Shown piece after piece: positions 2,402 to 28,856 of a DNA stretch of 32,000 nt. The notes beneath the pieces are model-generated. The model was not told the DNA's origin. It ran no database searches and saw nothing but the letters and a program-made list of their open reading frames with translations. The translations under genes and the position numbers were made by a program. This stretch comes from Flavobacteriaceae bacterium. Lineage in GTDB: Bacteria; Bacteroidota; Bacteroidia; Flavobacteriales; Flavobacteriaceae. Within the stretch, counting starts at the first letter, position 1; every line of letters starts with the position of its first letter. The stretch lies in contig OZ245049.1 in assembly GCA_965224465.1 (NCBI GenBank), positions 2,820,001 to 2,852,000 of the forward strand, in the 5' to 3' direction.

Positions 2402-5374
2402 ATGAAAATCCAATGTAAAGTTTGCAAGTCCAACAACAACATCGAAAATATATTGTGCATTAATTGCACAAAACCTTTAGGAGACAAAGAAGCACTTACA
2501 AAAAAACTATACAATCGCATTGTCCAATTAGAGAACAAATATCAGCAAGATATTTATGCCCTTAAAAAAGACATCTCTGATTTTAACAAAATCAACGATT
2601 CTGTTTCAGAATTGCTAGTAATCCCTGACAAGAAATATACAGAAATAAAAGAGGACGTCAGGGAAACAGTTCGAATTCAAAAAACAAATACGCTCGCGGT
2701 CGTTAGCAGCAAAACGGAACATCGAAAGATCAAGATTTCCAAACCCATTGTGCCTTCAAAATTAGAGCTTAAATTAAAAGAAATACTGGCGCCGTTAAAT
2801 GAAGGTATAGAATTGTTTTTAGATGCTTATGAAAAATACAAAAGAGAAGGAAAACTACCAATATTCTTTATGACAATAGCTGGTATTATCGCTATTCTAT
2901 TTGGCTTTGGATATTTAATGCAGCTTTCATTAAACTCTTTGGGAGCATATCAAGTGCTTGTTAAAATAGGTATGGGATTTACTTCTTCTATTGTGTTGGG
3001 TATTATTGGAACGAAGCTTTCACAAAAAAAAGAAACACTCAAAGAATATGGTTCAGCCCTAATAAGTCTAGGGATAATTCTCAACTATCTCATGATCTAT
3101 TTTATGTCAGATTTAGGAGAGTTTCCAATGTTATCTTCTGGCATTATCGGATTTAGTTTGATCTGTATAAATACAATTATTTCCATATATTTCTCATTGA
3201 AATACAATGCTAAAATAATTTCTGTTATTTCATTAATAGGTGGGGCATTTGCACCTCTATACCTCAACGCAATGGGAGATGGAAACCTTTACTATTTATA
3301 CCTATGGTTCCTTGCCATTGGCTCTTGTTACGTAGCAAAGAAAAAAAACTGGATCGAACTCAATTATTTAACGTTTGCAATAACACTAGGAAGCCTTGAA
3401 TTTATGGTTTTTAACCAAGGCCCAAGCAATATCATTTACGCTGTCTATTACCATCTTTTTGCGTATCTATTTTTCTATGTATCGCTATTTGATGGATTTA
3501 AACTAAAAAACAAGTACGTAAAACCTGACATAATTATCCTCGCTGCTAGTTTAAGTTTTTTCCTTTATAATTTATACAATGTATTTGAAAACAACCTTCT
3601 TGCATTAGGAATAGTTTATAGTATTAATGGCGTTGCTTTTGCCACCATATTACTTATAAAATGGAAGGCATTAAATAGAGACACCAGACTCATTTTATTC
3701 GTAGTAATCGGAGCCCTCATCGGTTTTGCTATACCGTCTATTTTTGATCAGAAATTAATGGGCTTATTCTGGTCTATTGAAGCATTATTACTAGTAATTC
3801 TTGGATTTTATTTCTCCATACCTACGGTACGAAAGGAAGGCTATATTCTATTAGCTGTTGCTTTCGGAAAACTAACACTTAGCAGTCTTTCAATAGTAGA
3901 TCATTGGAATCAAACAATATGGCATCAAGGACTTCTGAATTATATTGCTTTAGGTGCTGTTTTCACCTCCAACTGGTTTATTGGTAGAAAGCACATTAAA
4001 AAACTTATTGGATTTGAGAATGCACTCTACTCCTATACACAAGAAATAGTCCCACTATGGCTGGCATCGGCATATTTTATTATAGGATACCATCTGATTG
4101 GTGAATGGATATTTAACCTGTCAATAATTCCTTTATTCGGCTTTATTTATTGGAAGAAATACTTCCATACAAAACTAAGCGACCTGATAGGACTGAGCCA
4201 TTTATTATTGTTTCTCGCTGGGTTTTTATGGTCAATTCAAACCACAGGTTCATTTCATATATCAGATCAAAAACTATATGCTCAAATAGCGATCATAGAG
4301 TTTATGGCAAGTATTTGGGCTTTGAAATATTTTTACAAAATCATAAAAACAGAAAACAACAGTACTTTTAAATTTACACAAAGTTTAAGAATCATATTTT
4401 TCTGTCTTCTTCCGCTAATTTTGATCAATTTTATTAGAAGAAATGCTTTCGAATTTATCGAATTAGGACTATGGATTGGCGTATTAACAACGTACTTCTT
4501 GTACAAAAAATTAAAATACAAAGCACTTCAAACTGAGTTTTATCTTTTATCAGTAATTGCATTTCTTCTTTGTTATTTAGAATGGGATTCAGTTGGATTC
4601 ATCGCTGGTATTGGTTTTATTATTACAACCGTTATTTTAGAAAAAGCTGTGAATTATGAAGCACTACAAAAGTCTAATTTTAAGGAATACCTAACAATAC
4701 TCCCTTTTCTTTTGACCGTCTTAATTGGAAGCTTTATATTTTCATTGGATAATAGATTTCTTTCTCTTAGCCTCAGTGTTTCTTCATTTTCATTATTAAT
4801 TCTTACTTATTTTTACAATAAAATAGGCCCTATTAAGGAAGGCTATAAGACAGCAAGAAATATTGGCTTAATATTAAATCTATGTAGCATCTTATCATTG
4901 TTGTATTATGCATCTATCTTTTCAATGGCAATTTCAATCATTAATCTTGTACTCTTTTCAGTGCTACTGAACAATAAAAAAAATTGGTTCTCTAGTCTTT
5001 ATGGAAGACACTGGAATATTGCAATAATACTTCATCAAATTGAATGTGTTCTTGCAATCGGTATCATTCTTATATACATGAGAATCAGCATTACAAGCCC
5101 TATCTATTCCATACTATTGGCTATACATGCTATTATTGTATTATTTATAGCAATGAAAAATCAAATTAAAATTTTAAATAAAATAGCTATCGTGCTTTTT
5201 GCTGCAACATTACTTAAGGTGGTCTTTCACGATATCAACGGCATCAATACAACTCAAAAAGTAATTGTATTAATCATCCTTGGTTTCATACTTTTAAGTG
5301 CTTCCTACGCCTATGTTAGACTCTCGAATTATTTCGAAAAAAAACAGAATCAAATAAAACAGCAAAACAATTAA
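2402..5374 (+). CDS. Large polytopic membrane protein with an N-terminal zinc ribbon and coiled coil (DUF2339-like architecture)
   Basis: 990-aa ORF. It starts with CKVCKS...CINCTKPL (CxxC..CxxC), then a charged helical stretch, then more than 20 hydrophobic segments through to the C-terminus. Confidence 0.85.
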   Translation: MKIQCKVCKSNNNIENILCINCTKPLGDKEALTKKLYNRIVQLENKYQQDIYALKKDISDFNKINDSVSELLVIPDKKYTEIKEDVRETVRIQKTNTLAVVSSKTEHRKIKISKPIVPSKLELKLKEILAPLNEGIELFLDAYEKYKREGKLPIFFMTIAGIIAILFGFGYLMQLSLNSLGAYQVLVKIGMGFTSSIVLGIIGTKLSQKKETLKEYGSALISLGIILNYLMIYFMSDLGEFPMLSSGIIGFSLICINTIISIYFSLKYNAKIISVISLIGGAFAPLYLNAMGDGNLYYLYLWFLAIGSCYVAKKKNWIELNYLTFAITLGSLEFMVFNQGPSNIIYAVYYHLFAYLFFYVSLFDGFKLKNKYVKPDIIILAASLSFFLYNLYNVFENNLLALGIVYSINGVAFATILLIKWKALNRDTRLILFVVIGALIGFAIPSIFDQKLMGLFWSIEALLLVILGFYFSIPTVRKEGYILLAVAFGKLTLSSLSIVDHWNQTIWHQGLLNYIALGAVFTSNWFIGRKHIKKLIGFENALYSYTQEIVPLWLASAYFIIGYHLIGEWIFNLSIIPLFGFIYWKKYFHTKLSDLIGLSHLLLFLAGFLWSIQTTGSFHISDQKLYAQIAIIEFMASIWALKYFYKIIKTENNSTFKFTQSLRIIFFCLLPLILINFIRRNAFEFIELGLWIGVLTTYFLYKKLKYKALQTEFYLLSVIAFLLCYLEWDSVGFIAGIGFIITTVILEKAVNYEALQKSNFKEYLTILPFLLTVLIGSFIFSLDNRFLSLSLSVSSFSLLILTYFYNKIGPIKEGYKTARNIGLILNLCSILSLLYYASIFSMAISIINLVLFSVLLNNKKNWFSSLYGRHWNIAIILHQIECVLAIGIILIYMRISITSPIYSILLAIHAIIVLFIAMKNQIKILNKIAIVLFAATLLKVVFHDINGINTTQKVIVLIILGFILLSASYAYVRLSNYFEKKQNQIKQQNN

Positions 5375-5482
5375 CAAAGATATATTTTAGGGAATAGCCC
5401 CACTACTCCCTAAAAGACACCGTAATTCTAGACAACAACCATCAAACATGTAAAATAACTTACACATATACAAGTCGTTTTA

Positions 5483-5600
5483 CACCAATTACAATCCAAA
5501 ACGACCTATATAAATAGTTTATTTTACGTTCTAGCGTTGTTGAAAAAGAGAACAATAACTAAGGCTATCCTTAGATTTTCACCTAGCTAATAAAAATATT
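5483..5600 (+). repeat. MITE-like repeat copy with left end and core present and right terminus missing
   Basis: caccaattacaatccaaaacgacctatataaatagtttattttacgttctagcgttgttgaaaaagagaac..ggctatcc aligns with the copies at 19934 and 23019. Confidence 0.6.
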
Positions 5601-7931: not shown

Positions 7932-8108
7932 TTGAAAAATTGCGTCAGACCAAATAGACAGACTAAAATAACTGGAAGTAATCACTTATAGCACTTCCAG
8001 ATTAAGTGCGATAAATACCTGTGATTTTCTATATCATACCTAAAAAAGCCGAACAGTATTCACCTTTATCACAGCCTTAATAATGTTCCCGACAGCTACG
8101 ATATAAAT

Positions 8109-8230
8109 AACAATACAAAATAATCGATATACATAGTTTGTGTTACGTTCTAACCTTGTTGAAAAAACAGAACGATCCCTAAGGTTATCCTTCCATTATT
8201 AAACCGTCACATGGAAATATATTTGGTACT
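8109..8230 (+). repeat. MITE-like repeat copy, short form with a degenerate left end
   Basis: ..acgttctaaccttgttgaaaaaacagaacgatccctaaggttatccttccattattaaaccgtcacatggaaatatatttggtact aligns with the core and right terminus of the family. Confidence 0.55.
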
Positions 8231-10332: not shown

Positions 10333-10370
10333 TAATACCAAATACATTTCCAAGTGACGGTTTAGAAATG
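10333..10370 (-). repeat. Solo right-terminus copy of the MITE-like family
   Basis: taataccaaatacatttccaagtgacggtttagaaatg is the reverse complement of the ...catttctaaaccgtcatttggaaatgtatttggtatta end. It lies 33 nt after the peptidase stop. Confidence 0.5.
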
Positions 10371-10410
10371 TAATTTGTATAATACAATTATACCGAGGTA
10401 TTTCTAAGTA

Positions 10411-14846: not shown

Positions 14847-14920
14847 TCCTCCTTAGCTCAGTTGGTTAGAGCATCTGACTGTTAATCAGAGGGTCCTTGG
14901 TTCGAGCCCAAGAGGAGGAG
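14847..14920 (+). tRNA. tRNA-Asn (anticodon GTT)
   Basis: 74-nt cloverleaf. Acceptor tcctcct pairs with aggagga, with discriminator g. The anticodon loop is ctGTTaa and the T-arm is cttgg-ttcgagc-ccaag. CCA is not encoded. Confidence 0.95.
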
Positions 14921-14930
14921 CAACGTTTCT

Positions 14931-15089: not shown

Positions 15090-15163
15090 TCCTCCTTAGC
15101 TCAGTTGGTTAGAGCATCTGACTGTTAATCAGAGGGTCCTTGGTTCGAGCCCAAGAGGAGGAG
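15090..15163 (+). tRNA. tRNA-Asn (anticodon GTT), second copy
   Basis: Identical 74-nt sequence, 243 bp downstream of copy 1. Confidence 0.95.
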
Positions 15164-15172
15164 CAAGATTAT

Positions 15173-15366: not shown

Positions 15367-15389
15367 CCCAAGTGACAGTTTAGAAATGG
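15367..15389 (-). repeat. Short degenerate solo fragment of the MITE-like right terminus
   Basis: cccaagtgacagtttagaaatgg matches ccaagtgacggtttagaaatg at 10351-10370. Confidence 0.35.
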
Positions 15390-15574
15390 AATTATACACC
15401 TTCGAAAAGCACTGCTTTCAAATATCATCTTTAAAAGCAGGCTGATTGAAATAGGAATTCCTATATTGAAACCATGTACACCCTATTCAATAACTACAGA
15501 TAGCATTTCATCATTTATAAAAAATAAATACCAAAACAAGTAAAATAACCCCCTACTAACTATAAAATTACACC

Positions 15575-16249: not shown

Positions 16250-16329
16250 AATAACCGATATAAATAGAACAAAAAACGATTGTACTCAACGTATAACAAA
16301 TACATATCCAAGTGACGGTTTAGAAACGG
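16250..16329 (-). repeat. Rearranged or degenerate MITE-like copy
   Basis: aaataaccgatataaatag resembles the left-arm sequence. It is followed by ataacaaatacatatccaagtgacggtttagaaacgg, the right terminus in reverse orientation. Confidence 0.4.
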
Positions 16330-16492
16330 AATATTTTTTATTTTTGCGAGGCGAAAAACAAACTACTTATATCAGTCATTTTGGATTTTAGTTGGTGTTT
16401 TTTAAGCAATATACGAAACAACTCCCTTTAGGTGAATCATTACTGTATAAATGGCACTCTTAATTTTTAAGCCTCAGAATATTAAATTGTAA

Positions 16493-18096: not shown

Positions 18097-18225
18097 TACC
18101 AACAACAATCCAAAATAACCTATATAAATAGAGTCTTTTACGCTCTAGCGATGTTAAAAAACAGAACGACAACAAAGACTATCCTTCCATTTCTAAACCC
18201 TTACTTGGAAATGTATTTGTATTAT
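18097..18225 (+). repeat. MITE-like repeat copy, short form of about 129 bp
   Basis: ataccaacaacaatccaaaataacctatataaatag..acgctctagcgatgttaaaaaacagaacg..gactatccttccatttctaaacccttacttggaaatgtatttgtatta. Its right terminus contains the stop codon of the gene at 18222-19673. Confidence 0.6.
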
Positions 18226-19673: not shown

Positions 19674-19869
19674 TTATTTTTTTGTTTTTCGCTGTTAAAT
19701 TCTGCTTCATTTAGATTGTATATTGTTCTAAAAAAACAGCAGTTAGAAATGTTGGTTGGTAGTATTTTATAGTACCTTAACGTACGTTTAAAACAATTAT
19801 TTTCCTCCTTCCAAAAAAAATAGCTTACAACAGTTGACTGATGAAACACTGCGCTTATATCCCCCTTAA

Positions 19870-19933
19870 TTTCCACTCTTTATCTATCTTAATTCTTTTG
19901 TATTTTCTTGCAACTTCTCTCCCTGTCTTTCCA
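19870..19933 (-). pseudogene. Detached 3' end of immunity paralog Imm2(B), cut off by the MITE insertion
   Basis: atttccactctttatctatcttaattcttttgtattttcttgcaacttct.tccc.gtctttcca is homologous to 23354-23417, which encodes the LDGKTGEEVARKYKRIKIDKEWK tail of the intact paralog. Confidence 0.6.
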
Positions 19934-20100
19934 AAGAACACCAATTACAATCCAAAATGACAGATATAAATAGTTTATTTTACGTTCTAGCGTCGTTAAA
20001 AAACAGAACGATAGCTATGGCTATCCTTCCATTTTTCGCCTAGCTATAACAAAAAATAATTCCATTTCTAAACCGTCATTTGGAAATGTATTTGGTATTA
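19934..20100 (+). repeat. MITE-like element, long form of about 167 bp, inserted in the immunity gene Imm2(B)
   Basis: The intact paralog at 23409-23425 reads gtctttcca|tctaatac with no insert. Here the sequence aagaacaccaatt...aaatgtatttggtatta lies between those points. The imperfect terminal inverted repeats are caccaattacaatccaaaa and the reverse complement taccaaatacatttccaaa. Boundaries are good to about 5 bp. Confidence 0.7.
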
Positions 20101-20706
20101 CACATACCACAAAACAACACTAAAAACGCGAGTAGCTCCTTTAGGCGTATAGGGAACAGGACCATACATAACACTCCATTGTATAGAATCGGTTTCTGTT
20201 AAATTAGAAGAATCAGTACGAGCCAATGTTACTTTTGCTTTTTTAGTAAACCCCAAGACATCTTTATCTACAAGATTGTTTTCTTTGCAATATTCTAGAA
20301 CATCTTCTAACGTGAACGTGTAATATTTGTCGAAGTCCTTAACCTTAGTTATATTTCCATTACTATCATACCATTTAAACAATCCTAAATGAAGGTTTGA
20401 ATCATAGTATTCTCCTTTTTGTATAATAACCCCTATATTATTGAATACGTTAGTTTTACAATACTTTGACTTTTTTCTAGAAACCCTTTCTATATAATAA
20501 TTATCTCTATATTCCTGAGTTACAAAATCTTTATTATGATTATAAAAAGTATAAACAGTTCCTTTTTTGTATTTATTAAATGTACTTATATCAAAAGTAT
20601 CTAATCCTTGAGTCATTGTTGTTGTATTTTGTTGATTTGATTTTTTTTGCCCTTTACAAGACGTGCATGTAAGAGTAATAGCCACTAATATAATTAAAAA
20701 CCTCAT
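20098..20706 (-). CDS. Lipoprotein immunity paralog Imm2(B), C-terminally truncated with its stop supplied by the MITE terminus
   Basis: The real start is the ATG at 20706 (MRFLIILVAITLTCTSCKG). The longer track ORF reads out of frame through the orphan toxin remnant. It ends ...ATRVFSVVLWYV*, whereas the intact paralog continues VVLLYVLDGKTGEE... Confidence 0.7.
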   Translation of the reverse strand: MRFLIILVAITLTCTSCKGQKKSNQQNTTTMTQGLDTFDISTFNKYKKGTVYTFYNHNKDFVTQEYRDNYYIERVSRKKSKYCKTNVFNNIGVIIQKGEYYDSNLHLGLFKWYDSNGNITKVKDFDKYYTFTLEDVLEYCKENNLVDKDVLGFTKKAKVTLARTDSSNLTETDSIQWSVMYGPVPYTPKGATRVFSVVLWYV

Positions 20707-20708
20707 AT

Positions 20709-20897
20709 TTATTCGTTTTTTATTTTGGCATTGTTCCTTAATAGTTCCCATTGTCATTTGTAAAATTGGATGACAGGGAGTGCCGGAGTAATAACATCTG
20801 AATAATCCATAATACAATCGGTTTTACCATAATCATACGTAAAAGCACCAAAATTACTAAAACTATGGTACGCTAAGTTAATATACAGCGGCGGCAA
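20709..20897 (-). pseudogene. Orphan toxin C-terminal remnant CT2(B), further decayed
   Basis: Nearly identical to 24027-24215, but the codon for the first Trp of the KWQW motif is TGA here (plus strand ttgtcatttg versus ttgccatttg). Confidence 0.6.
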
Positions 20898-21547
20898 CTA
20901 ACAAACAAAAACCTCTAGGATAAACGAAATCAAAATCACATTCTCACTGTTTGTTATTTTTTTACATAGATTGTATCATATACTGCTATTGTTCCTGTTT
21001 CGCCTAAAGCATCTTTACCTTTAAAGAGTTTTACTATAAGTTCTTCTCCTGTTTTTCCATCCAAAACAATAACAAAACGACCTTTTACATCCTTATACCG
21101 CCCATTAAAATCAAGTGTCCAAGTAGTTTCACTAGCATCACTCCATCTTGAAATACCAATCACTTGTTTTTGTATGTCTTCTACATCATGATCCATTAAA
21201 TACTTTTTTATATCTTCCCACGAAAACGTATAAGGAGCATCTAAATCTATTTCTTTTATCAATGTTCCTTGTTCGTCGTATTCTTTTAAAATACCTTTTA
21301 TAAAGTCATTCGGAAAAGACAAAAAAGATGATTTTAATTTTCCGTTTTTATAATATTCATAAATCTTTTCAAAACAATCACTTTCTCCCCTATAAAACTC
21401 CCAGTATGAATCCGTTAATTCTTGCTGCCTAATTACTATTCCTTTTTCTATTGAATACGTATACTCTCCAAAACCATTTTTTTTATTTTTAAAACCCTCT
21501 ATATCGAATGTCTTCATTGTTTTACTTGTTTTTATTTTATTTTGACT

Positions 21548-22672
21548 CTTAAATTCAACTAATAAACGCAACTTTTCGATTTGATTCTATGATGGTTATA
21601 TTTTCAAAACAGAAAAGTAGGAAAACCTACCTTTCTTGTCTTGATGGATATGTATCTTACGGTCTCAAATCTCGAAAAAAGAAGTTGTATGAAACACATC
21701 ACCCAAGCGCAAAGATACACAATTTGTTGCATGTTAAAACAAGGTTATAAACAGGTTGAGATAGCAGCTGCTATAGGAAAAGACAAGTCTGTTATTAGCA
21801 AAGAGATTAAGCGTAATTCAGACAAAAGAAATGGAGTTTACAAGCATGAATTAGCCCAAAAAAAGTATGCTAAACGTCATAAAGAAAAGCCTAAAAGAAA
21901 ACGCTTTACAGAAGATATTCAACAAGCAATAGAGTTGTTATTGCGAGACGATTATAGTCCTGAGCAAGTAGTTGGTGTCCTAAAAAAACAAGGTAAAGAA
22001 ACGGTGTCTATTGAGCGTATATATCAGCATATTAGGGAAGACAAGAGGAATGATGGTGATTTACATACACACCTTCGCAGACAGGGAAGGAGATATAGAA
22101 AACGTGGCTCATCAAAGGATTCTAGAGGGGTTATAAAGAATCGTATTAGTATAGAACAACGCCCTGAAGTTGTTGAACAAAGAAATCGATTTGGAGATTT
22201 AGAGGTCGATTTAATCATAGGTAAAAACCATAATCAAGCCATACTTACCGTAAATGATAGAGCTTCTGGAATGCTTAAAATGAAAAAAGTAAGCTCTAAA
22301 GAAGCAGTTGTTGTCACTAAAGCTATCAATGAAATATTAGAAGACTGGAAGCCTTATCTACATACTATAACAGCTGATAATGGAAAAGAATTTGCAGGCC
22401 ATGAGCAGGTTGCAGAAAATTTATGTATTGATTACTTTTTTGCGCATCCATATCACTCTTGGGAAAGAGGATCTAACGAAAATTTAAATGGTTTGATTAG
22501 ACAATATTTTGCCAAAGGAAGTGACTTTACAAACCTAACAGATCAAAGAATCAAAGAGGTAGAAACAAAATTAAATAACAGACCTAGGAAGAGACATAAA
22601 TATCAAAACCCTATATTTGTAATGGAACAATTATTATTTAACTAAAAGTTGCGTTTGTGACTTGAATTCAGC
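21548..22672 (+). mobile_element. IS30-family insertion sequence, copy 1, 1125 bp
   Basis: Boundaries come from comparison with the uninterrupted paralog, which reads tttgactattacaattg at about 24855. Here the sequence is tttgACT[IS]ACTattacaattg, a 3-bp target duplication. The imperfect inverted repeats are cttaaattcaactaataaacgcaactttt and the reverse complement gctgaattcaagtcacaaacgcaactttt. Confidence 0.9.
21689..22645 (+). CDS. IS30-family transposase
   Basis: The likely start is MKHITQAQRYTICCMLKQGYKQVEIAAAIGKDKSVISKEIKRNS, a helix-turn-helix. The DDE core includes GDLEVDLI, ITADNGKEF and WERGSNENLNGLIRQY. The track start at 21641 is a TTG 16 codons upstream. Confidence 0.9.
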   Translation: MKHITQAQRYTICCMLKQGYKQVEIAAAIGKDKSVISKEIKRNSDKRNGVYKHELAQKKYAKRHKEKPKRKRFTEDIQQAIELLLRDDYSPEQVVGVLKKQGKETVSIERIYQHIREDKRNDGDLHTHLRRQGRRYRKRGSSKDSRGVIKNRISIEQRPEVVEQRNRFGDLEVDLIIGKNHNQAILTVNDRASGMLKMKKVSSKEAVVVTKAINEILEDWKPYLHTITADNGKEFAGHEQVAENLCIDYFFAHPYHSWERGSNENLNGLIRQYFAKGSDFTNLTDQRIKEVETKLNNRPRKRHKYQNPIFVMEQLLFN

Positions 22673-22729
22673 ACTATTACAATTGACCATAGTTATTAAA
22701 ACGGCTATTATATATATATTCTTCATAAC

Positions 22730-22888
22730 TTATTCTTTATCTAGGTTATTTTGCATAATACTCCATTGCCAAACCCAAGTACTAATTACAGGTATTAAGT
22801 TTGGACCAATATCAGAATAATCCATAATAGTATCGGTTTAGCCATTTTCATACGTAAAAGAAGCTAAAAATGGACATCTCTGTACATC
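22730..22888 (-). pseudogene. Chimeric orphan toxin C-terminal remnant with an internal stop
   Basis: The reverse strand reads ..FLASFTYENG*TDTIMDYSDIGPNLIPVISTWVWQWSIMQNNLDKE*. The 3' part is nearly identical to the tail of the full toxin. The part upstream of TD.IMDY resembles the CT2 remnant (AFTYDYGKTDCIMDY). Confidence 0.55.
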
Positions 22889-22939
22889 ATTTCTGATTTT
22901 GAATCATAAAAAAACATTATAATACAACCAAATCGTTTA

Positions 22940-23294
22940 CTAATCCTCTCTTGATTTCCACTCTTTATCTATCTTAATTCTTTTGTATTTTCTTGCAACT
23001 TCTTCCCCCGTCTTTCCAAAGAACACCAATTACAATCCAAAATAACCGATATAAATAGTTTATTTTACGTTCTAGCGTCGTTAAAAAACAGAACGATAGC
23101 TATGACTATCCTTCCATTTTTCGCCTAGCTATAACAAAAAATAATTCCATTTCTAAACCGTCATTTGGAAATGTATTTGGTATTACACATACCACAAAAC
23201 CACCCTAAAAACGCGAGTAGTTCCTTTAGGCGTATAGGGAACAGAACCATACATAACACTCCATTGTATAGAATCGGTTTCTGTTAAATTAGAA
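22940..23294 (-). pseudogene. Partial third copy of the Imm2 3' end, also carrying a MITE
   Basis: It encodes SNLTETDSIQWSVMYGSVPYTPKGTTRVFRVVLWYV*, then the MITE, then the LDGKTGEE..SRED* tail. The junction to unrelated spacer is at about 23294 (ttaaattaga|attttgaatc). Confidence 0.6.
23019..23185 (+). repeat. MITE-like element, long form, at the same site as the 19934 copy
   Basis: Near-identical to 19934-20100, with the same flanks (gtctttcca| and |cacataccacaaaac). Confidence 0.7.
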
Positions 23295-23337
23295 TTTTGA
23301 ATCATAAAAAAACATTACAACACAACCAAATCGTTTA

Positions 23338-24024
23338 CTAATCCTCTCTTGATTTCCACTCTTTATCTATCTTAATTCTTTTGTATTTTCTTGCAACTTC
23401 TTCCCCCGTCTTTCCATCTAATACATACAACAAAACCACACTAAAAACGCGAGTAGCTCCTTTAGGCGTATAGGGAACAGGACCATACATAACACTCCAT
23501 TGTATAGAATCAGTTTCTGTTAAATTAGAAGAATCAGTACGAGCCAATGTTACTTTTGCTTTTTTAGTAAACCCCAAGACATCTTTATCAACAATATTGT
23601 TTTCTTTGCAATATTCTAGAACATCTTCTAACGTGAACGTGTAATATTTATTCAAATTATCTTTTTTTACTACAATTCCTTCTTCATTAATATACATATA
23701 ATTACCTATGTAAATATTACCGTAGAATTCACCTTTTTCTTTTACACTTCCATTTTTATAGAATATTTTTTTAACACCGTATTTACTGTCTTTATGAGTT
23801 GTTTTCTCAGAATAATAATCTCCCCAATCTATTTGGCACACTATATTTCCCAAAGAGTTATTAAAATTATATTCATTACCAACTCTATTCTTTTTAAATG
23901 TTTCTATATCTAATACCTCTAATTCTTGAGTCATTGTTGTTGTATTTTGTTTATTTGATTTTTCTTGCCCTTTACAAGACGTGCATGCAAAAGTAATAGC
24001 CACTAATATAATTAAAAGCTTCAT
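23338..24024 (-). CDS. Lipoprotein immunity paralog Imm2(A), intact
   Basis: The start at 24024 gives MKLLIILVAITFACTSCKG. The middle has MORN-like repeats (KKIFYKNGSVKEKGEFYGNIYIGNYMYINEEGIVV). The C-terminus is ..IQWSVMYG...VFSVVLLYVLDGKTGEEV. The start lies 2 nt after the CT2 remnant stop. Confidence 0.8.
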   Translation of the reverse strand: MKLLIILVAITFACTSCKGQEKSNKQNTTTMTQELEVLDIETFKKNRVGNEYNFNNSLGNIVCQIDWGDYYSEKTTHKDSKYGVKKIFYKNGSVKEKGEFYGNIYIGNYMYINEEGIVVKKDNLNKYYTFTLEDVLEYCKENNIVDKDVLGFTKKAKVTLARTDSSNLTETDSIQWSVMYGPVPYTPKGATRVFSVVLLYVLDGKTGEEVARKYKRIKIDKEWKSRED

Positions 24025-24026
24025 AT

Positions 24027-24215
24027 TTATTCGTTTTTTATTTTGGCATTGGCCCTTAATAGTTCCCATTGCCATTTGTAAAATTGGATGACAGGGAGTG
24101 CCGGAGTAATAACATCTGAATAATCCATAATACAATCGGTTTTACCATAATCATACGTAAAAGCACCAAAATTACTAAAACTATGGTACGCTAAGTTAAT
24201 ATACAGCGGCGGCAA
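24027..24215 (-). pseudogene. Orphan toxin C-terminal remnant CT2(A), lacking the HExxH helix
   Basis: (L)PPLYINLAYHSFSNFGAFTYDYGKTDCIMDYSDVITPALPVIQFYKWQWELLRANAKIKNE* aligns with GLYHSFSDSGEFVFEKFKTDNIMDYSDIGPNLIPVISTWVWQWSVMQNNLDKE* of the full toxin. The only start is a TTG directly preceded by an in-frame TAG. Confidence 0.65.
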
Positions 24216-24271
24216 CTAACGAACAAAAACCTCTAGGATAAACGCAATCAAAATCACATTCTCACTGTTTG

Positions 24272-24913
24272 TTATTTTTTTACATAGATTGTATCATATA
24301 CTGCTATTGTTCCTGTTTCGCCTAAAGCATCTTTACCTTTAAAGAGTTTTACTATAAGTTCTTCTCCTGTTTTTCCGTCCAAAACAATAACAAAACGACC
24401 TTTTACATCCTTATACCGCCCATTAAAATCAAGTGTCCAAGTAGTTTCATTAGCATCACTCCATCTTGAAATACCAATCACTTGTTTTTGTATGTCTTCT
24501 ACATCATGATCCATTAAATACTTTTTTATATCTTCCCACGAAAACGTATAAGGAGCATCTAAATCTATTTCTTTTATCAATGTTCCTTGTTCGTCGTATT
24601 CTTTTAGATTCCCCAAGGCAAAAGCCTTAGGAAATCTTTTTACAAAGCGTTTTACTTTTCCATTTTTAAAATACTCATAAAAATATTCTAAAACAGAGTC
24701 TACAGATTTTATTGTTTCCCAATATTCATCTTCATTTTCATATTGTTTTACACTTATACCATCATTGGAAGTGAAAAAGTAAGAATTCATCGTTTTGTTC
24801 TTTTTAAAACCCTCTATATCAAATGTCTTCATTGTTTTACTTGTTTTTATTTTATTTTGACTATTACAATTGACCATAGTTATTAAAACGGCTATTATAT
24901 ATATATTCTTCAT
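24272..24913 (-). CDS. Lipoprotein, candidate cognate immunity protein Imm1(A) of the TssD-metzincin toxin
   Basis: 213 aa, starting 3 nt after the toxin stop. MKNIYIIAVLITMVNC is a signal peptide with Cys. It has a MORN-like segment (FYEYFKNGKVKRFVKRF) and a C-terminal ..TTWTLDFNGRYKDVKGRFVIVLDGKTGEELIV. Confidence 0.85.
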   Translation of the reverse strand: MKNIYIIAVLITMVNCNSQNKIKTSKTMKTFDIEGFKKNKTMNSYFFTSNDGISVKQYENEDEYWETIKSVDSVLEYFYEYFKNGKVKRFVKRFPKAFALGNLKEYDEQGTLIKEIDLDAPYTFSWEDIKKYLMDHDVEDIQKQVIGISRWSDANETTWTLDFNGRYKDVKGRFVIVLDGKTGEELIVKLFKGKDALGETGTIAVYDTIYVKK

Positions 24914-24916
24914 AAC

Positions 24917-26800
24917 TTATTCTTTATCTAGGTTATTTTGCATAACACTCCATTGCCAAACCCAAGTACTAATTACAGGTATTAAGTTTGGTCCAATATC
25001 AGAATAATCCATAATATTATCGGTTTTAAATTTCTCAAAAACAAACTCACCACTGTCACTAAAACTGTGATATAAGCCCATTGCATGAAAAGTCTCATGT
25101 ACCAATGTACTATCAGTTAACCCCGGTCGTAAAACAATTACAGAGCGCTTTACCGAAGGAATACCAGACGCTCTACCAAACAACCCTCCTTGTTCTTCGT
25201 CTATAAAAAATATTTTGTAACACTTACTATAATCTTTTTTGTGTTGTGTTTTTAACGCAGAAATTAGATAATCTTGAAAACCATCTGTATCTGCATTAAT
25301 AAGAGTTCCTTTAGGAGCATATTTTTTGTTAAATGGTTTATCTTTAGATAGATTTAAATTCACAGTATCATAGCTAGCATTGGCTAACAACTGACTAAAA
25401 TATTTAGAAAACTCTTTCCGTCTACCTACAGTACTTCCAATCATTTTAGCGCCAATATTAAGTTCTGTAGTAACACTAACAAACACAATGTCTGCTTTAT
25501 AACGATTTGTTTTGTCGTTCGCCAATATTTTTAATTTCCCTGCAAATACGCCGTCGGCTTCTACTTCAATAAATTGGTCTACAGCAAACTCTTTAATGCA
25601 TTTAACAGTTAATCCATCTGCTAATTCCTTTTTACCAACGGTTTTGTGAGACACCTCTGAGCTACTAAGTTTAAAATAAGTTTTATCATATTTATAGGCA
25701 ATCTTTTTAGCGTCAGACCCTTCAATTTCCACCTTTAATGTAAGTGTAGCTTCTTTATATGGAAGTAAAGTTAAGACTGGAACAACGTATTTGTCGTTAG
25801 ACTTTATAGGATGTTGTGGCATTTCAAAATAGTTACCTAATTTTATATATTCTGCATCGTTTTGCACAAAACTTCCTGTAGAATAACTCCCAATAATATC
25901 TTTGTAAAATACATCTCCTTTTTTACCTGTATCAGCCATTCGTAACCAATCGAAACCATAATCTCCATTATAGCTATTTCCAGTTCTAAAATTAACAAGC
26001 ACTTTTGGTGGAGGCACAATTTGCAAGGGTTTACTTTGTTTCTTTTTTCCACTATGACTTACCTTAGCTATAAGTGCGTCCATAGTTGCTTCTTTAAAAT
26101 CTAGCCATTGTTCTTTAATTTCGAGGAACGATAATTCAAAAGATCCGTCTTTGTTTAATAGTTCACTAAAAGACAATTGTTTTACACCTTTTTCAAATTC
26201 GGTTCCATCTTTTTTAGTAATGGTAATGTTTATCGCATTTCCACTTGGATTTTCTATTTGTGTACTTAATGCCACACACTCTGAATAAGTACTTTCTTCT
26301 AAAATTTCCTTGCTTTCTGGATGAATCCAATCCACTTTTGTAATGGTTGGTGTTACTTCTATCCTATTTGTATGTATCATAGGCGCTACGTCTTCCTCTG
26401 GAAAAGTAACCCTCCACGATGCTGAATAAACACCAGAAGACATGGAATCTTCAAACCCCGCAGCGGTCAACGTAAGTGTTTCGGTCATGGGCAGGTTACC
26501 AATGGAAGAAAAATTGGTCTTCCAAGAAACAAGATGCGTATCAAATAGTTTAATTTTTCTAATTCTACCGCCCTCAATAATGGGTTCTAGCAATAATTCT
26601 AGTTGTTTTGTTTGTCTAGAAGCAAACGACCACTCCGTCAAATTGAGATCTTTTCTAGTTTCTAAAACAAGGTCTAGCCCTTTAAATAACGGAATTACTG
26701 AAGGCTTCCCGGTAGCATCAGATCCTTGTTCAAAAACAAGCCTATACCGCAGTACGTTTACTCTTTTTTCGTCGATAATCAACAGTGCTTTAAAGCTCAT
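24917..26800 (-). CDS. Polymorphic toxin with a TssD/Hcp-like N-terminal domain, an unassigned middle region of about 300 aa and a C-terminal metzincin zinc peptidase
   Basis: 627 aa with no signal peptide. The N-terminus MSFKALLIIDEKRVNVLRYRLVFEQGSDATGKPS...LTEWSF...PMTETLTLTAAGF fits the Bacteroidota T6SS-iii tube protein pattern. The C-terminus has HETFHAMGLYH (HExxHxxGxxH) and NIMDY, a candidate Met-turn. Confidence 0.85.
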   Translation of the reverse strand: MSFKALLIIDEKRVNVLRYRLVFEQGSDATGKPSVIPLFKGLDLVLETRKDLNLTEWSFASRQTKQLELLLEPIIEGGRIRKIKLFDTHLVSWKTNFSSIGNLPMTETLTLTAAGFEDSMSSGVYSASWRVTFPEEDVAPMIHTNRIEVTPTITKVDWIHPESKEILEESTYSECVALSTQIENPSGNAINITITKKDGTEFEKGVKQLSFSELLNKDGSFELSFLEIKEQWLDFKEATMDALIAKVSHSGKKKQSKPLQIVPPPKVLVNFRTGNSYNGDYGFDWLRMADTGKKGDVFYKDIIGSYSTGSFVQNDAEYIKLGNYFEMPQHPIKSNDKYVVPVLTLLPYKEATLTLKVEIEGSDAKKIAYKYDKTYFKLSSSEVSHKTVGKKELADGLTVKCIKEFAVDQFIEVEADGVFAGKLKILANDKTNRYKADIVFVSVTTELNIGAKMIGSTVGRRKEFSKYFSQLLANASYDTVNLNLSKDKPFNKKYAPKGTLINADTDGFQDYLISALKTQHKKDYSKCYKIFFIDEEQGGLFGRASGIPSVKRSVIVLRPGLTDSTLVHETFHAMGLYHSFSDSGEFVFEKFKTDNIMDYSDIGPNLIPVISTWVWQWSVMQNNLDKE

Positions 26801-26805
26801 ATTTG

Positions 26806-28014
26806 TTAGTTTAGAGAGCTGTCAAGCAGCAGAGATTCCGAATAATTATCTAATAGTTTTTTACATTCTTTAATTAATGCTTCTTCCGCATAGCTTTTTT
26901 GAAGCTCGTTAAAACACACATCCGCTTGCGCTAGATTGTTTTTTTCTAACCAAACTCTTAAAGCGATATATTGAAAATAAATAAACTCATCCAACCTTAA
27001 AAACAAATCTCTATCAGGGCAAATTTTCCTAAAGTCCAAATGCTCGTTAAGTATGCCAGTTATCTGATCTAAAATCACCTCTTTTTCTGTTCTTAATTGT
27101 TCTGACGACAAAAGCAACTCAGAAATACGAATTTTTGAAATCAAAAAACCAGGAAACTCTTTATACAAAACACTTACAGTTTCAACATATTCTGTATTCA
27201 TATTAAGATGTCGGAAGTATTCGCACAGTAAATTTTGAAAATGAGGAACCTCCAGGTTTTTATCTGCCTGAATTTGCATTTCAACTAACAAATTAGAAGA
27301 CGGCTTGCTTAATGCGTAAATTCTTTCAGAAAAATCTTCAATTTGTTCAATCTGAACATTGGTTAATTTATAGTAAGGATAAATTCTCCTCTTGTCGTCC
27401 GTCACTTCAATTAAAGTAGTTTCAATTTTTAGTTTTTCCCTTCGACAATCTGTTATTCGTTGTTTCGCTTGAATATGAGCGGGTTCGTTTTCGATTAATT
27501 TAGCCAATAAATGCTCCGTTTTAACAGCATCCTCCAACCTATCTACATTTAAAAAATAATCAATTCTAAAAAGAAAAAAATTCACGATTTCAGAAATATG
27601 AAATTCAGTTTTCCCCGGAAAAGCGGTACTTATTTCTAAATTCTCACCTAAAATAGCCCTTACTTTGGCATGTTCACCTTTGACTCCATGCAGCTGAGCC
27701 ATGCTTAATTTAGCAAAAAACTCATTCGGGAATTTTTGATAAAAAACGCTAGCATGCCCAAAGGCAACTTCGTTTTCTCCTTTCTGGATATACTCATGAA
27801 CAAGCTGCTTATAAAAGAAAGGAATTTTCGGAAACTTCTGTATATACTTTTTTAGGTTCTCTCTGTTTTTAGTTCTTCCAAAATCCTGAATAGATTCAAT
27901 CATTAAATTTTTAATATGTGGAAAATGATTTTTTAAGAAATAATCATCATCATCTATCACAGTAAGCTCCGTTCTGTCTTTAAAAAGCACCTTCTTATTG
28001 GGTATAATTTTCAT
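26806..28014 (-). CDS. Hypothetical all-helical protein made of two tandem homologous halves, first gene of the toxin operon
   Basis: It ends 5 nt before the toxin start. The preferred start is the ATG at 28014 (MKIIPNKK..); the track start at 28101 adds 29 aa. The halves align as LTVIDDDD..IESIQDF..IPFFYKQLVHEY..VFYQKFPNEFFAKLSMAQL versus LIEVTDDK..IEQIEDF..VPHFQNLLCEY..VLYKEFPGFLISKIRISEL. Confidence 0.8.
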   Translation of the reverse strand: MKIIPNKKVLFKDRTELTVIDDDDYFLKNHFPHIKNLMIESIQDFGRTKNRENLKKYIQKFPKIPFFYKQLVHEYIQKGENEVAFGHASVFYQKFPNEFFAKLSMAQLHGVKGEHAKVRAILGENLEISTAFPGKTEFHISEIVNFFLFRIDYFLNVDRLEDAVKTEHLLAKLIENEPAHIQAKQRITDCRREKLKIETTLIEVTDDKRRIYPYYKLTNVQIEQIEDFSERIYALSKPSSNLLVEMQIQADKNLEVPHFQNLLCEYFRHLNMNTEYVETVSVLYKEFPGFLISKIRISELLLSSEQLRTEKEVILDQITGILNEHLDFRKICPDRDLFLRLDEFIYFQYIALRVWLEKNNLAQADVCFNELQKSYAEEALIKECKKLLDNYSESLLLDSSLN

Positions 28015-28856
28015 ACTATTTTTTGTTGTTTTTATTTTTTGTGTTTTAAATACGATTGACCTAGACAAACGACATGGGCTGTTACGAATATAAATATACA
28101 CCTAATATCTGTATAGAGAAACGCTCTAAAAAAACACAGTATTCGCTTTTTTGTCCTTTAAAAAAATCAATTATGAATGGCTCTAATCAAAGCAAATATC
28201 ATTCCAATAACCGTATAAATCACGTATTATTAGTTTTATAAGTGTTAAAAAACAGATTCATCACAAAAGCTATCCTAAGGCATTCGGATGAGACAGACCA
28301 ACAAACAGCCACAGAACCAACTTTTAGGATAGCACTCCCGTAATCCAATATACGAATCGTGTTTATTCGGTTTTACACATGAAAATTGATTTAAAAACGA
28401 CCTGTATTTTTTATCTCAACTCAACAAAAGGACGCTTTTAAAAAGGACTGACGCTTTCAAATAAGCCCATCCACAACCTCATCCAAGGACAAGTGGTAGG
28501 CTTCTGAAGTAATAATTTCTATGTAACATCAGATTCACAAGAAAAAGAATCTTCCATAAGGGATGCTGTCAAAAAAACAAGAAAAATGATTAGATCAAAA
28601 CAATATTTCTAAAAGCAATAACCTCGAGGCAAGCCAACGAGACATGAAAAAGAAAAAACCTTAATCATTTTAATGAAAGCATAGGTAAATTAAACCCACT
28701 GGTGCAATTAAAAAAAACGTTAGTAAAAGTTAAACACAAGGGTTCTTGCTCTTAAGACCACTCTGTTTCTCAACTAATTTACATGACTTTTAACATGTTA
28801 AAAAACTTAAATATTTCTTAAATTTGTAATAATTCTTAATTCTATTTTCATGCATT

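Follow-up and report, generated by a model that had tools for sequence, protein, structure and literature searches.

Mosaic immunity genes behind a TssD-fused effector gene in a Flavobacteriaceae genome point to recombination between tandem paralogs

A 32,000-nucleotide stretch of a Flavobacteriaceae bacterium genome (assembly GCA_965224465.1, contig OZ245049.1, positions 2,820,001 to 2,852,000 of the forward strand; hereafter the window, with position 1 as its first letter) carries an array of toxin and immunity genes in which the immunity paralogs are mosaics. This array is very probably an effector–immunity island of the Bacteroidota-type type VI secretion system (T6SS), in a genome that resembles those of Tenacibaculum or Aquimarina, in which an intact effector gene and its cognate immunity gene, Imm1A, are trailed by older modules that were diversified by recombination. 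The effector, a predicted Hcp/TssD-fused zinc metallopeptidase, and the putative lipoprotein Imm1A would be followed by a CT2 toxin remnant with Imm2A, a partial Imm2, a CT1-like toxin remnant with Imm1B, and a further CT2 remnant with Imm2B, and these modules would all be ancient, diverged members of one toxin–immunity family. We propose that homologous recombination or gene conversion between the repeats would hold the conserved stretches (intergenic DNA, signal peptides, the C-terminal domain of the immunity protein and, from IMDYSD onward, the 3′ end of the effector gene) at ∼98% identity, and that the same stretches may act as homology arms. The centre of the immunity gene, ∼65–90 codons of predicted MORN-like β-hairpins, would persist between these arms as a distinct old 'cassette', and recombination in the arms could then shift cassettes between array positions and alter copy number.

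The repeated unit, a toxin 3′ end followed by Imm1, a toxin 3′ remnant and Imm2, occurs twice in the window, both times on the minus strand, as the initial annotation of the sequence had proposed: copy A lies at 25026–23423 and copy B at 22839–20102 (with the insertion sequence (IS) in it removed). All features of the array share this orientation and are described here downward from 26800. The effector gene (24917–26800) is an intact open reading frame (ORF) of 627 aa, and the piece reaching up to 25030 that had been described as the toxin tail CT1 of copy A is in fact the last ∼36 codons of this gene. The term 'orphan toxin tails' was thus overstated, as one tail belongs to the live effector gene and the rest are short, decayed 3′ remnants of 37–62 codons that lack the HExxH motif, with in-frame stops in CT1-B and CT2-B, and which, to judge from their sequence, are non-functional. 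Imm1A (24272–24913), a predicted lipoprotein immunity gene, begins 3 nt past the effector stop and is an intact ORF of 213 aa; its central cassette, designated type alpha (24607–24800, ∼aa 39–103), comprises three MORN-like β-hairpins. Next comes CT2-A (24027–24215), a ∼62-codon 3′ remnant of a second effector subtype that shares 62.7% of its nucleotides with the 3′ end of the effector gene; in its translation, aligned with the effector tail, it starts within the HExxHxxGxxH motif (…AYHSF…IMDYSD…) and the catalytic His-Glu is absent. It is followed by Imm2A (23338–24024; intact ORF of 228 aa, predicted lipoprotein immunity gene, central cassette 23650–23917). A third, partial Imm2 3′ end had been reported between the copies, and we located it at 22943–23294 on the minus strand, where it contains an element resembling a miniature inverted-repeat transposable element (MITE) at 23015–23190 and is 96.3% identical to 19859–20209.

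In copy B the same succession is present in a more decayed form. CT1-B (22730–22885) is a decayed effector 3′ remnant. Imm1B (20954–22726) is split by the IS after codon 17–18 into a 5′ piece (22674–22726) and a remainder (20954–21545), and is open in frame throughout when reconstructed without the IS; its central cassette (21289–21485) is of type beta. CT2-B (20709–20897) is the same remnant as CT2-A, with 3 nt differences and a TGG>TGA premature stop. Imm2B (20098–20706, 202 aa, central cassette 20329–20599) is truncated at its 3′ end by a MITE-like repeat, and the displaced last Imm2 codons lie beyond this repeat at 19859–19929. The only intact genes in the array are thus the effector, Imm1A and Imm2A. 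The GC content of the array is the same as that of its surroundings (0.319 versus 0.33).

We aligned copies A and B with MAFFT after removal of the IS and divided the alignment by maximum-likelihood segmentation. Five segments were obtained, in which near-identity and strong divergence alternate: 98.2% nt identity over 25026–24801, 52.1% over 24800–24607 (the alpha cassette of Imm1A against the beta cassette of Imm1B), 98.0% over 24606–23918, 52.6% over 23917–23650 and 97.8% over 23649–23423. The five-segment model had a log-likelihood of −430.8 versus −680.1 for a single rate, and a coarse segmentation reached −439.3 with the observed differences versus −658.8 for the best of 100 permutations of these differences. 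Because the segment model is so far above both the single rate and the permutations, we consider the identity breakpoints to be real and sharp; divergence is not uniform along the copies, and the paralogs are true mosaics with near-identical ends and diverged centres, as had been suggested. The remaining details of that description were also confirmed: the toxin tails are nearly identical (3 of 189 nt differ between the CT2 remnants and 3 of 110 nt between the CT1 ends), exactly 2 of 56 positions differ between 24216–24271 and 20898–20953, and every shared or divergent peptide that had been quoted was found in the paralogs named. An origin of the variable centres by frameshift was rejected, as the centres align in frame (37% aa identity for Imm1, 31% for Imm2) and each of them has closer relatives in other genomes. 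A further boundary lies inside CT1-B. Over its first 12 codons (SFTYENG*TD, which include an in-frame stop) the remnant is CT2-like; then, starting at IMDYSD (22839 and below), it matches the live effector gene at 98% identity. As this boundary falls inside an older remnant, conversion between pre-existing diverged modules is favoured over a simple recent duplication.

The synonymous (dS) and nonsynonymous (dN) divergence, calculated by the Nei–Gojobori method for the flanks and the centres of the immunity paralogs, differs in the same abrupt manner. Between Imm1A and Imm1B, dS is 0.015–0.05 in the flanks, and in the centre dS is saturated with a dN of 0.70; between the Imm2 paralogs, flank dS is 0–0.06 and centre dS is about 2 with a dN of 0.65. 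The dN/dS ratio in the centres is thus below 1. Since positive selection cannot saturate synonymous sites next to sites that it leaves untouched, the centres must coalesce far earlier than the flanks, and saturated dS together with dN/dS below 1 indicates that they are older lineages and not fast-evolving copies. Comparison with homologs gave a consistent picture. Imm1A and Imm1B have 37% amino acid identity across their centres but 99% across their C-terminal halves, whereas Imm1B is about equally similar in both parts to a relative from another genome (P0011; 72% centre, 73% C-terminus), and so is Imm1A to a different one (P0002; 78% and 80%); for Imm2A and P0031 the values are 56% and 46%. 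The types of centre (alpha, beta, gamma, delta and epsilon) are thus trans-specific, whereas the flanks cluster by genome.

Movement of the cassettes can be followed in Tenacibaculum maritimum, where we compared six strains at the same recQ–miaE locus. Among three paralogs that follow the homologous effector gene directly, without toxin remnants, dS is 0.03–0.06 for the C-terminal half and 0.9–1.6 for the centre. L006 and L018 both have a full toxin gene, and the cassettes are in the order delta, epsilon, gamma in L006 and gamma, epsilon, delta in L018; L022 has a truncated toxin gene with delta and gamma, and L019, L020 and L021 have a truncated toxin gene with delta. The number of immunity paralogs per locus thus varies from 1 to 3. 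The arrays of L006 and L018 are 96–100% identical except for two windows of ∼200–250 bp at ∼50% identity, in which genes 1 and 3 have traded their central cassettes. Each cassette differs by only 0–2 nt whatever its position in the array; the position-specific leaders and 3′ ends stay fixed in place and the cassettes move. Thus, T. maritimum shows population-level exchange of cassettes and change of copy number through conserved blocks. In four of the six strains (L019–L022), the effector is 5′-truncated to ∼170–216 codons and one or two immunity genes are intact, which, as read from these ORFs, amounts to loss of the toxin with retention of immunity. Two further features of these loci were observed. 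The second leader type in T. maritimum (…LIGINKSIAQQ…; L006 9331–10008, L018 4331–5008 and 5001–5669) lacks the Cys that comes after the hydrophobic stretch in the other leaders (…INGCVAQQ…), and some paralogs may therefore be non-lipoproteins or be exported differently. In L020, an ORF of ∼ten tandem 19-aa repeats (LYKILPSFSVQGFQPTPKS; 3265–3849) lies upstream of the truncated toxin gene, in this one strain.

Among the alternatives to recombination within the array, the one that fares best, and which we still regard as unlikely, is pure sequential horizontal displacement, with one donor strain for each unit. The near-identity of the flanks would then reflect recent shared ancestry of the donors and not intragenomic conversion. 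Orphan remnants from another effector subtype (CT2) and the presence of another immunity clade (Imm2) are what this model would predict, as in the Vibrio cholerae arrays discussed below, and the distribution of cassette types across species also agrees with it. However, the donors would still have needed mosaic alleles, which leaves recombination as the generator of the diversity. In addition, the 98% block of CT1-B begins exactly at a conserved motif within a diverged remnant, and the T. maritimum paralogs, which have no toxin remnants between them, show equally homogenised flanks in a single array.

Much less probable, and rejected here on the contrast in dS, is a recent tandem duplication of the whole unit after which positive, diversifying selection acted locally on the middle part of each immunity gene. 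Flanks that are ∼98% identical are indeed expected of a young duplicate, and immunity interfaces evolve fast in other systems (PMC12247911), but neither the saturated synonymous sites in the centres beside a flank dS of 0–0.06, nor the dN/dS below 1, nor the greater similarity of each centre to a relative in another genome than to its own paralog, nor the recombination boundary within the older CT1-B remnant fits this history. The initial annotation had left cassette-like recombination and localised diversifying selection side by side; the jump in dS, the trans-specific centres and the cassette moves in T. maritimum speak for the former, and the saturated dS and the dN/dS ratio against the latter. 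We give hardly any credence to a dedicated diversifier, that is, a diversity-generating retroelement or a site-specific recombinase of the shufflon or integron-like kind that is known from arrays of acquired interbacterial defence associated with a recombinase (rAID). The variation is limited to a sharply bounded segment and there are mobile-element genes in the window, but a Pfam scan of all window ORFs of at least 90 aa revealed no reverse transcriptase and no tyrosine recombinase, and the 32 kb contain no serine recombinase either, the only hits of this kind being IS30-type and IS1595-type DDE transposases. Furthermore, a search for inverted repeats found none, substitutions show a symmetric spectrum instead of an adenine-specific one, as the template and variable repeats of a retroelement target would require, and the centres are old lineages common to several species. 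As little credit can be given to an assembly artefact, a chimeric join of collapsed repeats, because, although 98%-identical repeats of 200–700 bp can mislead short-read assemblers, the source contig is 5.24 Mb long, scattered differences, as well as different IS and MITE contents, distinguish the copies, and the same architecture occurs in independent T. maritimum assemblies (some of them complete chromosomes) and in metagenomes.

Copy B is undergoing erosion in this strain by the IS, the MITE-like element and stop codons. The IS in Imm1B (21547–22673, plus strand, 1127 bp) belongs to the IS30 family and encodes a 334-aa transposase with HTH_38 and rve domains (Pfam); a second copy at 28856–29982 matches it at 100% identity, so its insertion is recent. 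The MITE-like repeat within the Imm2B 3′ end (19930–20105, minus strand) gives Imm2B its stop codon and removes the last 26 aa. This C-terminal extension is still present in homologs outside the window, so the insertion is the derived state. The element has imperfect ∼25-nt terminal inverted repeats and forms a long hairpin with a fold energy of −61 kcal/mol. Elements of this MITE type, which also resemble repetitive extragenic palindromic (REP) sequences, are ∼130–175 nt long and occur at least 8 times in the window (19930–20105, 23015–23190, 5482–5596, 18098–18224, 8106–8228 and 16293–16403, with partial copies at 10333–10375 and 15368–15395); no Rfam match was found for them. Most of the copies are intergenic, just past stop codons, and the two inside Imm2 3′ ends provide a TAA stop.

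Several points weigh against the interpretation of the array as an island diversified by recombination. For the window array, homogenisation of the flanks by conversion and import of the centres by double crossover are inseparable. The evidence that cassettes move comes solely from a relative, T. maritimum, and not from the species of the window itself; genome and metagenome scans returned 5 loci each, none of them from that species. The immunity families have no curated Pfam or NCBIfam model, with only weak matches to MORN_2 and DUF6705. The Pfam scan revealed no T6SS apparatus gene within the 32-kb window; in one homologous locus, genes for gp25/TssE and for a further TssD lie near the effector homolog. 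Finally, the idea that the array is a stockpile of immunity variants was overstated, as two of the four immunity genes (Imm1B and Imm2B) are disrupted in this strain, and with half of the array disrupted it is doubtful that there is current selection for a stockpile.

The assignment of the effector to the T6SS comes from its N-terminal domain (aa 1–129), which is a TssD/Hcp tube-protein domain of the kind found in Bacteroidota-type T6SS effectors (PF17642 TssD, E 2.7e-23; Hcp1 of the Flavobacterium johnsoniae type, 6bdc_A, E 3.9e-6). The C-terminal region contains HETFHAMGLYH (nt 25067–25099) followed by the Met-turn-like IMDYSD (nt 24998–25015), and both motifs are kept in all homologs. Matches to Astacin and Reprolysin_4 at the HExxH are weak and below the Pfam cut-offs (E 0.014–0.026), and a search of PDB gave no sequence match for the C-terminal toxin domain. 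At the level of motifs, the C-terminus is thus a putative metzincin-like metallopeptidase. Homologs in Lacinutrix, Aquimarina, Tenacibaculum and Cellulophaga carry the NCBI names 'TssD' or 'reprolysin-like metallopeptidase'. A review table lists the type IX secretion system (T9SS) as the sole secretion system of T. maritimum (PMC8714846); despite this T9SS-only listing, T. maritimum carries intact TssD-fused effector genes (L006 and L018).

The least conserved stretch in the C-terminal 300 aa of the effector, among 33 homologs, is a loop at ∼aa 445–462 (25415–25468, minus strand). This hypervariable loop lies upstream of everything that is kept in the orphan remnants, and therefore identical toxin tails next to different immunity centres are not contradictory. 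The toxin genes of T. maritimum L006 and L018 are 96–100% identical and the loop is their only diverged stretch (∼100 nt), so that the T. maritimum toxin is a mosaic as well, with a sharply bounded hypervariable loop. In these otherwise near-identical loci, loop a is found with the delta cassette first and loop b with the gamma cassette first, and alpha-type immunity genes in two genomes are preceded by toxins with similar loops. On the other hand, the toxins of L014 and L023 have similar loops and are linked to beta and gamma types, respectively. The sequences are therefore suggestive of co-variation of loop and cassette in some pairs, which the L014 and L023 pair contradicts. It is possible, although we hold this only tentatively, that the effector loop and the MORN-like cassette form a matched lock and key; recombination that swaps both would then let one Hcp-fused scaffold change its compatibility group, and the array would archive the earlier keys.

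Homology links Imm1 with Imm2 (29% identity, E 6e-19), and each has a hydrophobic N-terminal leader ending in Cys, which on visual inspection we took for a lipoprotein signal. The window proteins match MORN_2 (PF07661) below the cut-off (E 6.7e-4, 20 bits versus 29.6). A profile search recovered 848 family clusters at 50% identity, and the immunity superfamily is thus larger than it first appeared; MORN_2 was matched by 21 of 50 remote members (best E 1.4e-7) and PepSY (PF03413) by 2 of 50 (best E 4.2e-4). AlphaFold2 (AF2) gave confident models, with predicted local distance difference test (pLDDT) scores of 88.5 for Imm1A and 90.0 for a second model. In the model of Imm1A, a helix is followed by seven β-strands arranged as MORN-like hairpins (aa 44–117) and by a C-terminal domain (aa 126–211) with α-helical structure and five strands; the variable cassette (aa 41–103) coincides with the first six strands. 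Foldseek comparison of the AF2 models with PDB returned nothing at E≤0.001. There were weak matches to YpmB/YpeB (E 0.07 for the whole protein, E 1.5–2.1 for the C-terminal domain), and the A5 profile weakly matched 9vy3 (E 0.087), whose PDB entry is named 'Propeptide, PepSY amd peptidase M4'. Three weak lines of this kind hint that the C-terminal domain may be PepSY-like, which we offer as a lead only.

A member of this family begins a few nt past the effector stop in the window and in Lacinutrix, a Flavobacteriaceae metagenome-assembled genome, T. maritimum and several metagenome contigs, and the synteny of effector and immunity gene was found, besides the window, in L002, L003, L006, L007–L009, L014, L015, L018, L023 and L024. 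Another metagenome contig (L013) contains a further repeat of toxin tail, Imm gene and toxin fragment. A lone beta-type member lies among housekeeping genes in Porphyromonas crevioricanis (L004 9929–10669), with no adjacent toxin gene; this oral species of the Bacteroidales may thus harbour an orphan immunity gene. Given the strict synteny, the retention next to truncated toxin genes and the lone P. crevioricanis copy, we infer a role in immunity. The Imm proteins would presumably act in the periplasm against the metallopeptidase, the central cassette would set the specificity between toxin and immunity protein, and the extra paralogs would protect against toxin variants of non-kin.

Two neighbouring features of the window stand apart from the array. 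An ORF of 431 aa (26806–28101) lies directly upstream of the effector gene and is co-oriented with it; no Pfam or NCBIfam match was found for it, and no counterpart in the related loci that were compared. Two tRNA-Asn(GTT) genes (14847–14921 and 15090–15164) lie 243 bp apart and ∼5 kb from the array, with equal Rfam scores (69 bits); the Rfam scan of the window found nothing beyond them.

How does the locus compare with known systems? The orphan toxin-tail and immunity modules of Rhs and contact-dependent inhibition (CDI) systems recombine at conserved toxin sequence, a property that the window locus shares. A close likeness is with the tandem immunity paralogs esaG of Staphylococcus aureus and tipC of Streptococcus, which are part of type VII secretion systems (T7SS) and between which recombination has been described (Garrett et al. 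2022, PMC9484751). Common to both are strings of non-identical immunity paralogs beside a polymorphic toxin, a variable region framed on its 5′ and 3′ sides by conserved homology blocks, with breakpoints within the blocks, gain and loss of copies among strains, and toxin gene fragments within the array. Homology blocks that flank a variable segment in tandem paralogs were found in the window and in T. maritimum, and recombination mapped to the blocks together with copy-number change between strains in T. maritimum only. The systems differ in that the present one is a Gram-negative Bacteroidota T6SS with a TssD-fused effector, whereas the other is a Firmicute T7SS. The families are unrelated, here predicted lipoproteins with MORN-like hairpins and an α/β C-terminal domain that would be directed against a metallopeptidase. 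The block here is ∼690 bp long and covers the whole C-terminal domain, the intergenic DNA, the toxin remnant and the next signal peptide, and in T. maritimum whole cassettes trade positions.

In V. cholerae, orphan immunity arrays arise from sequential displacement of T6SS effector–immunity modules (Kirchberger et al. 2017, PMC5361080). As there, the window has co-oriented immunity genes behind an active effector, short 3′ effector remnants before orphan genes, and orphan modules (CT2/Imm2) that differ in subtype from the resident one, with homologous recombination in conserved effector sequence implicated; the pairs of remnant and co-oriented orphan gene are CT2-A/Imm2A, CT1-B/Imm1B and CT2-B/Imm2B. 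In contrast to V. cholerae, all modules of the window come from a single family, and recombination within the array has made them partly homogeneous; the effector carries an Hcp fusion and is not linked to VgrG, PAAR or Rhs, and the remnants, which lack the HExxH, are too short to be re-armed as toxin tips.

The array also resembles the 'polyimmunity loci' of Zhang et al. (2012, PMC3482391) and the acquired interbacterial defence (AID-1) and rAID arrays, with which it shares tandem paralogous immunity genes and a proposed protection against non-kin toxins. By the definition of rAID in gut Bacteroidales, as far as it is quoted in PMC12247911, a predicted tyrosine recombinase heads an array of short, co-oriented orphan immunity genes that share intergenic motifs. 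Measured against that quoted definition, the window array has co-oriented genes of 200–230 codons, but it lacks a tyrosine recombinase, nothing indicates that a mobile element carries it, and its cognate effector is adjacent. Its repeated intergenic sequence appears to be a product of duplication and not a recombination motif, the similarity being explained by whole-block duplication or conversion. The initial assignment to the acquired-interbacterial-defence type therefore does not hold in these terms, as the array stands directly behind its own effector with no tyrosine recombinase in the window, and fits orphan or polyimmunity arrays better; at most, it may be analogous to AID in function. 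In the locus, an orphan or polyimmunity array thus occurs together with recombination among tandem immunity paralogs, and no new principle is involved. In a literature search of incomplete coverage, we found no description of this toxin–immunity family, or of this mechanism in the T6SS of Bacteroidota.

These findings extend a mechanism described for the immunity genes of the Gram-positive T7SS, recombination via conserved blocks, to an uncharacterised family of Bacteroidota T6SS effectors. They also provide a compact and testable model, in which a ∼65-residue cassette is swappable between otherwise identical proteins to probe specificity. Moreover, T. maritimum strains differ in how their cassettes are ordered, in copy number and in whether the toxin gene is intact, which may bear on the competition between strains in aquaculture.

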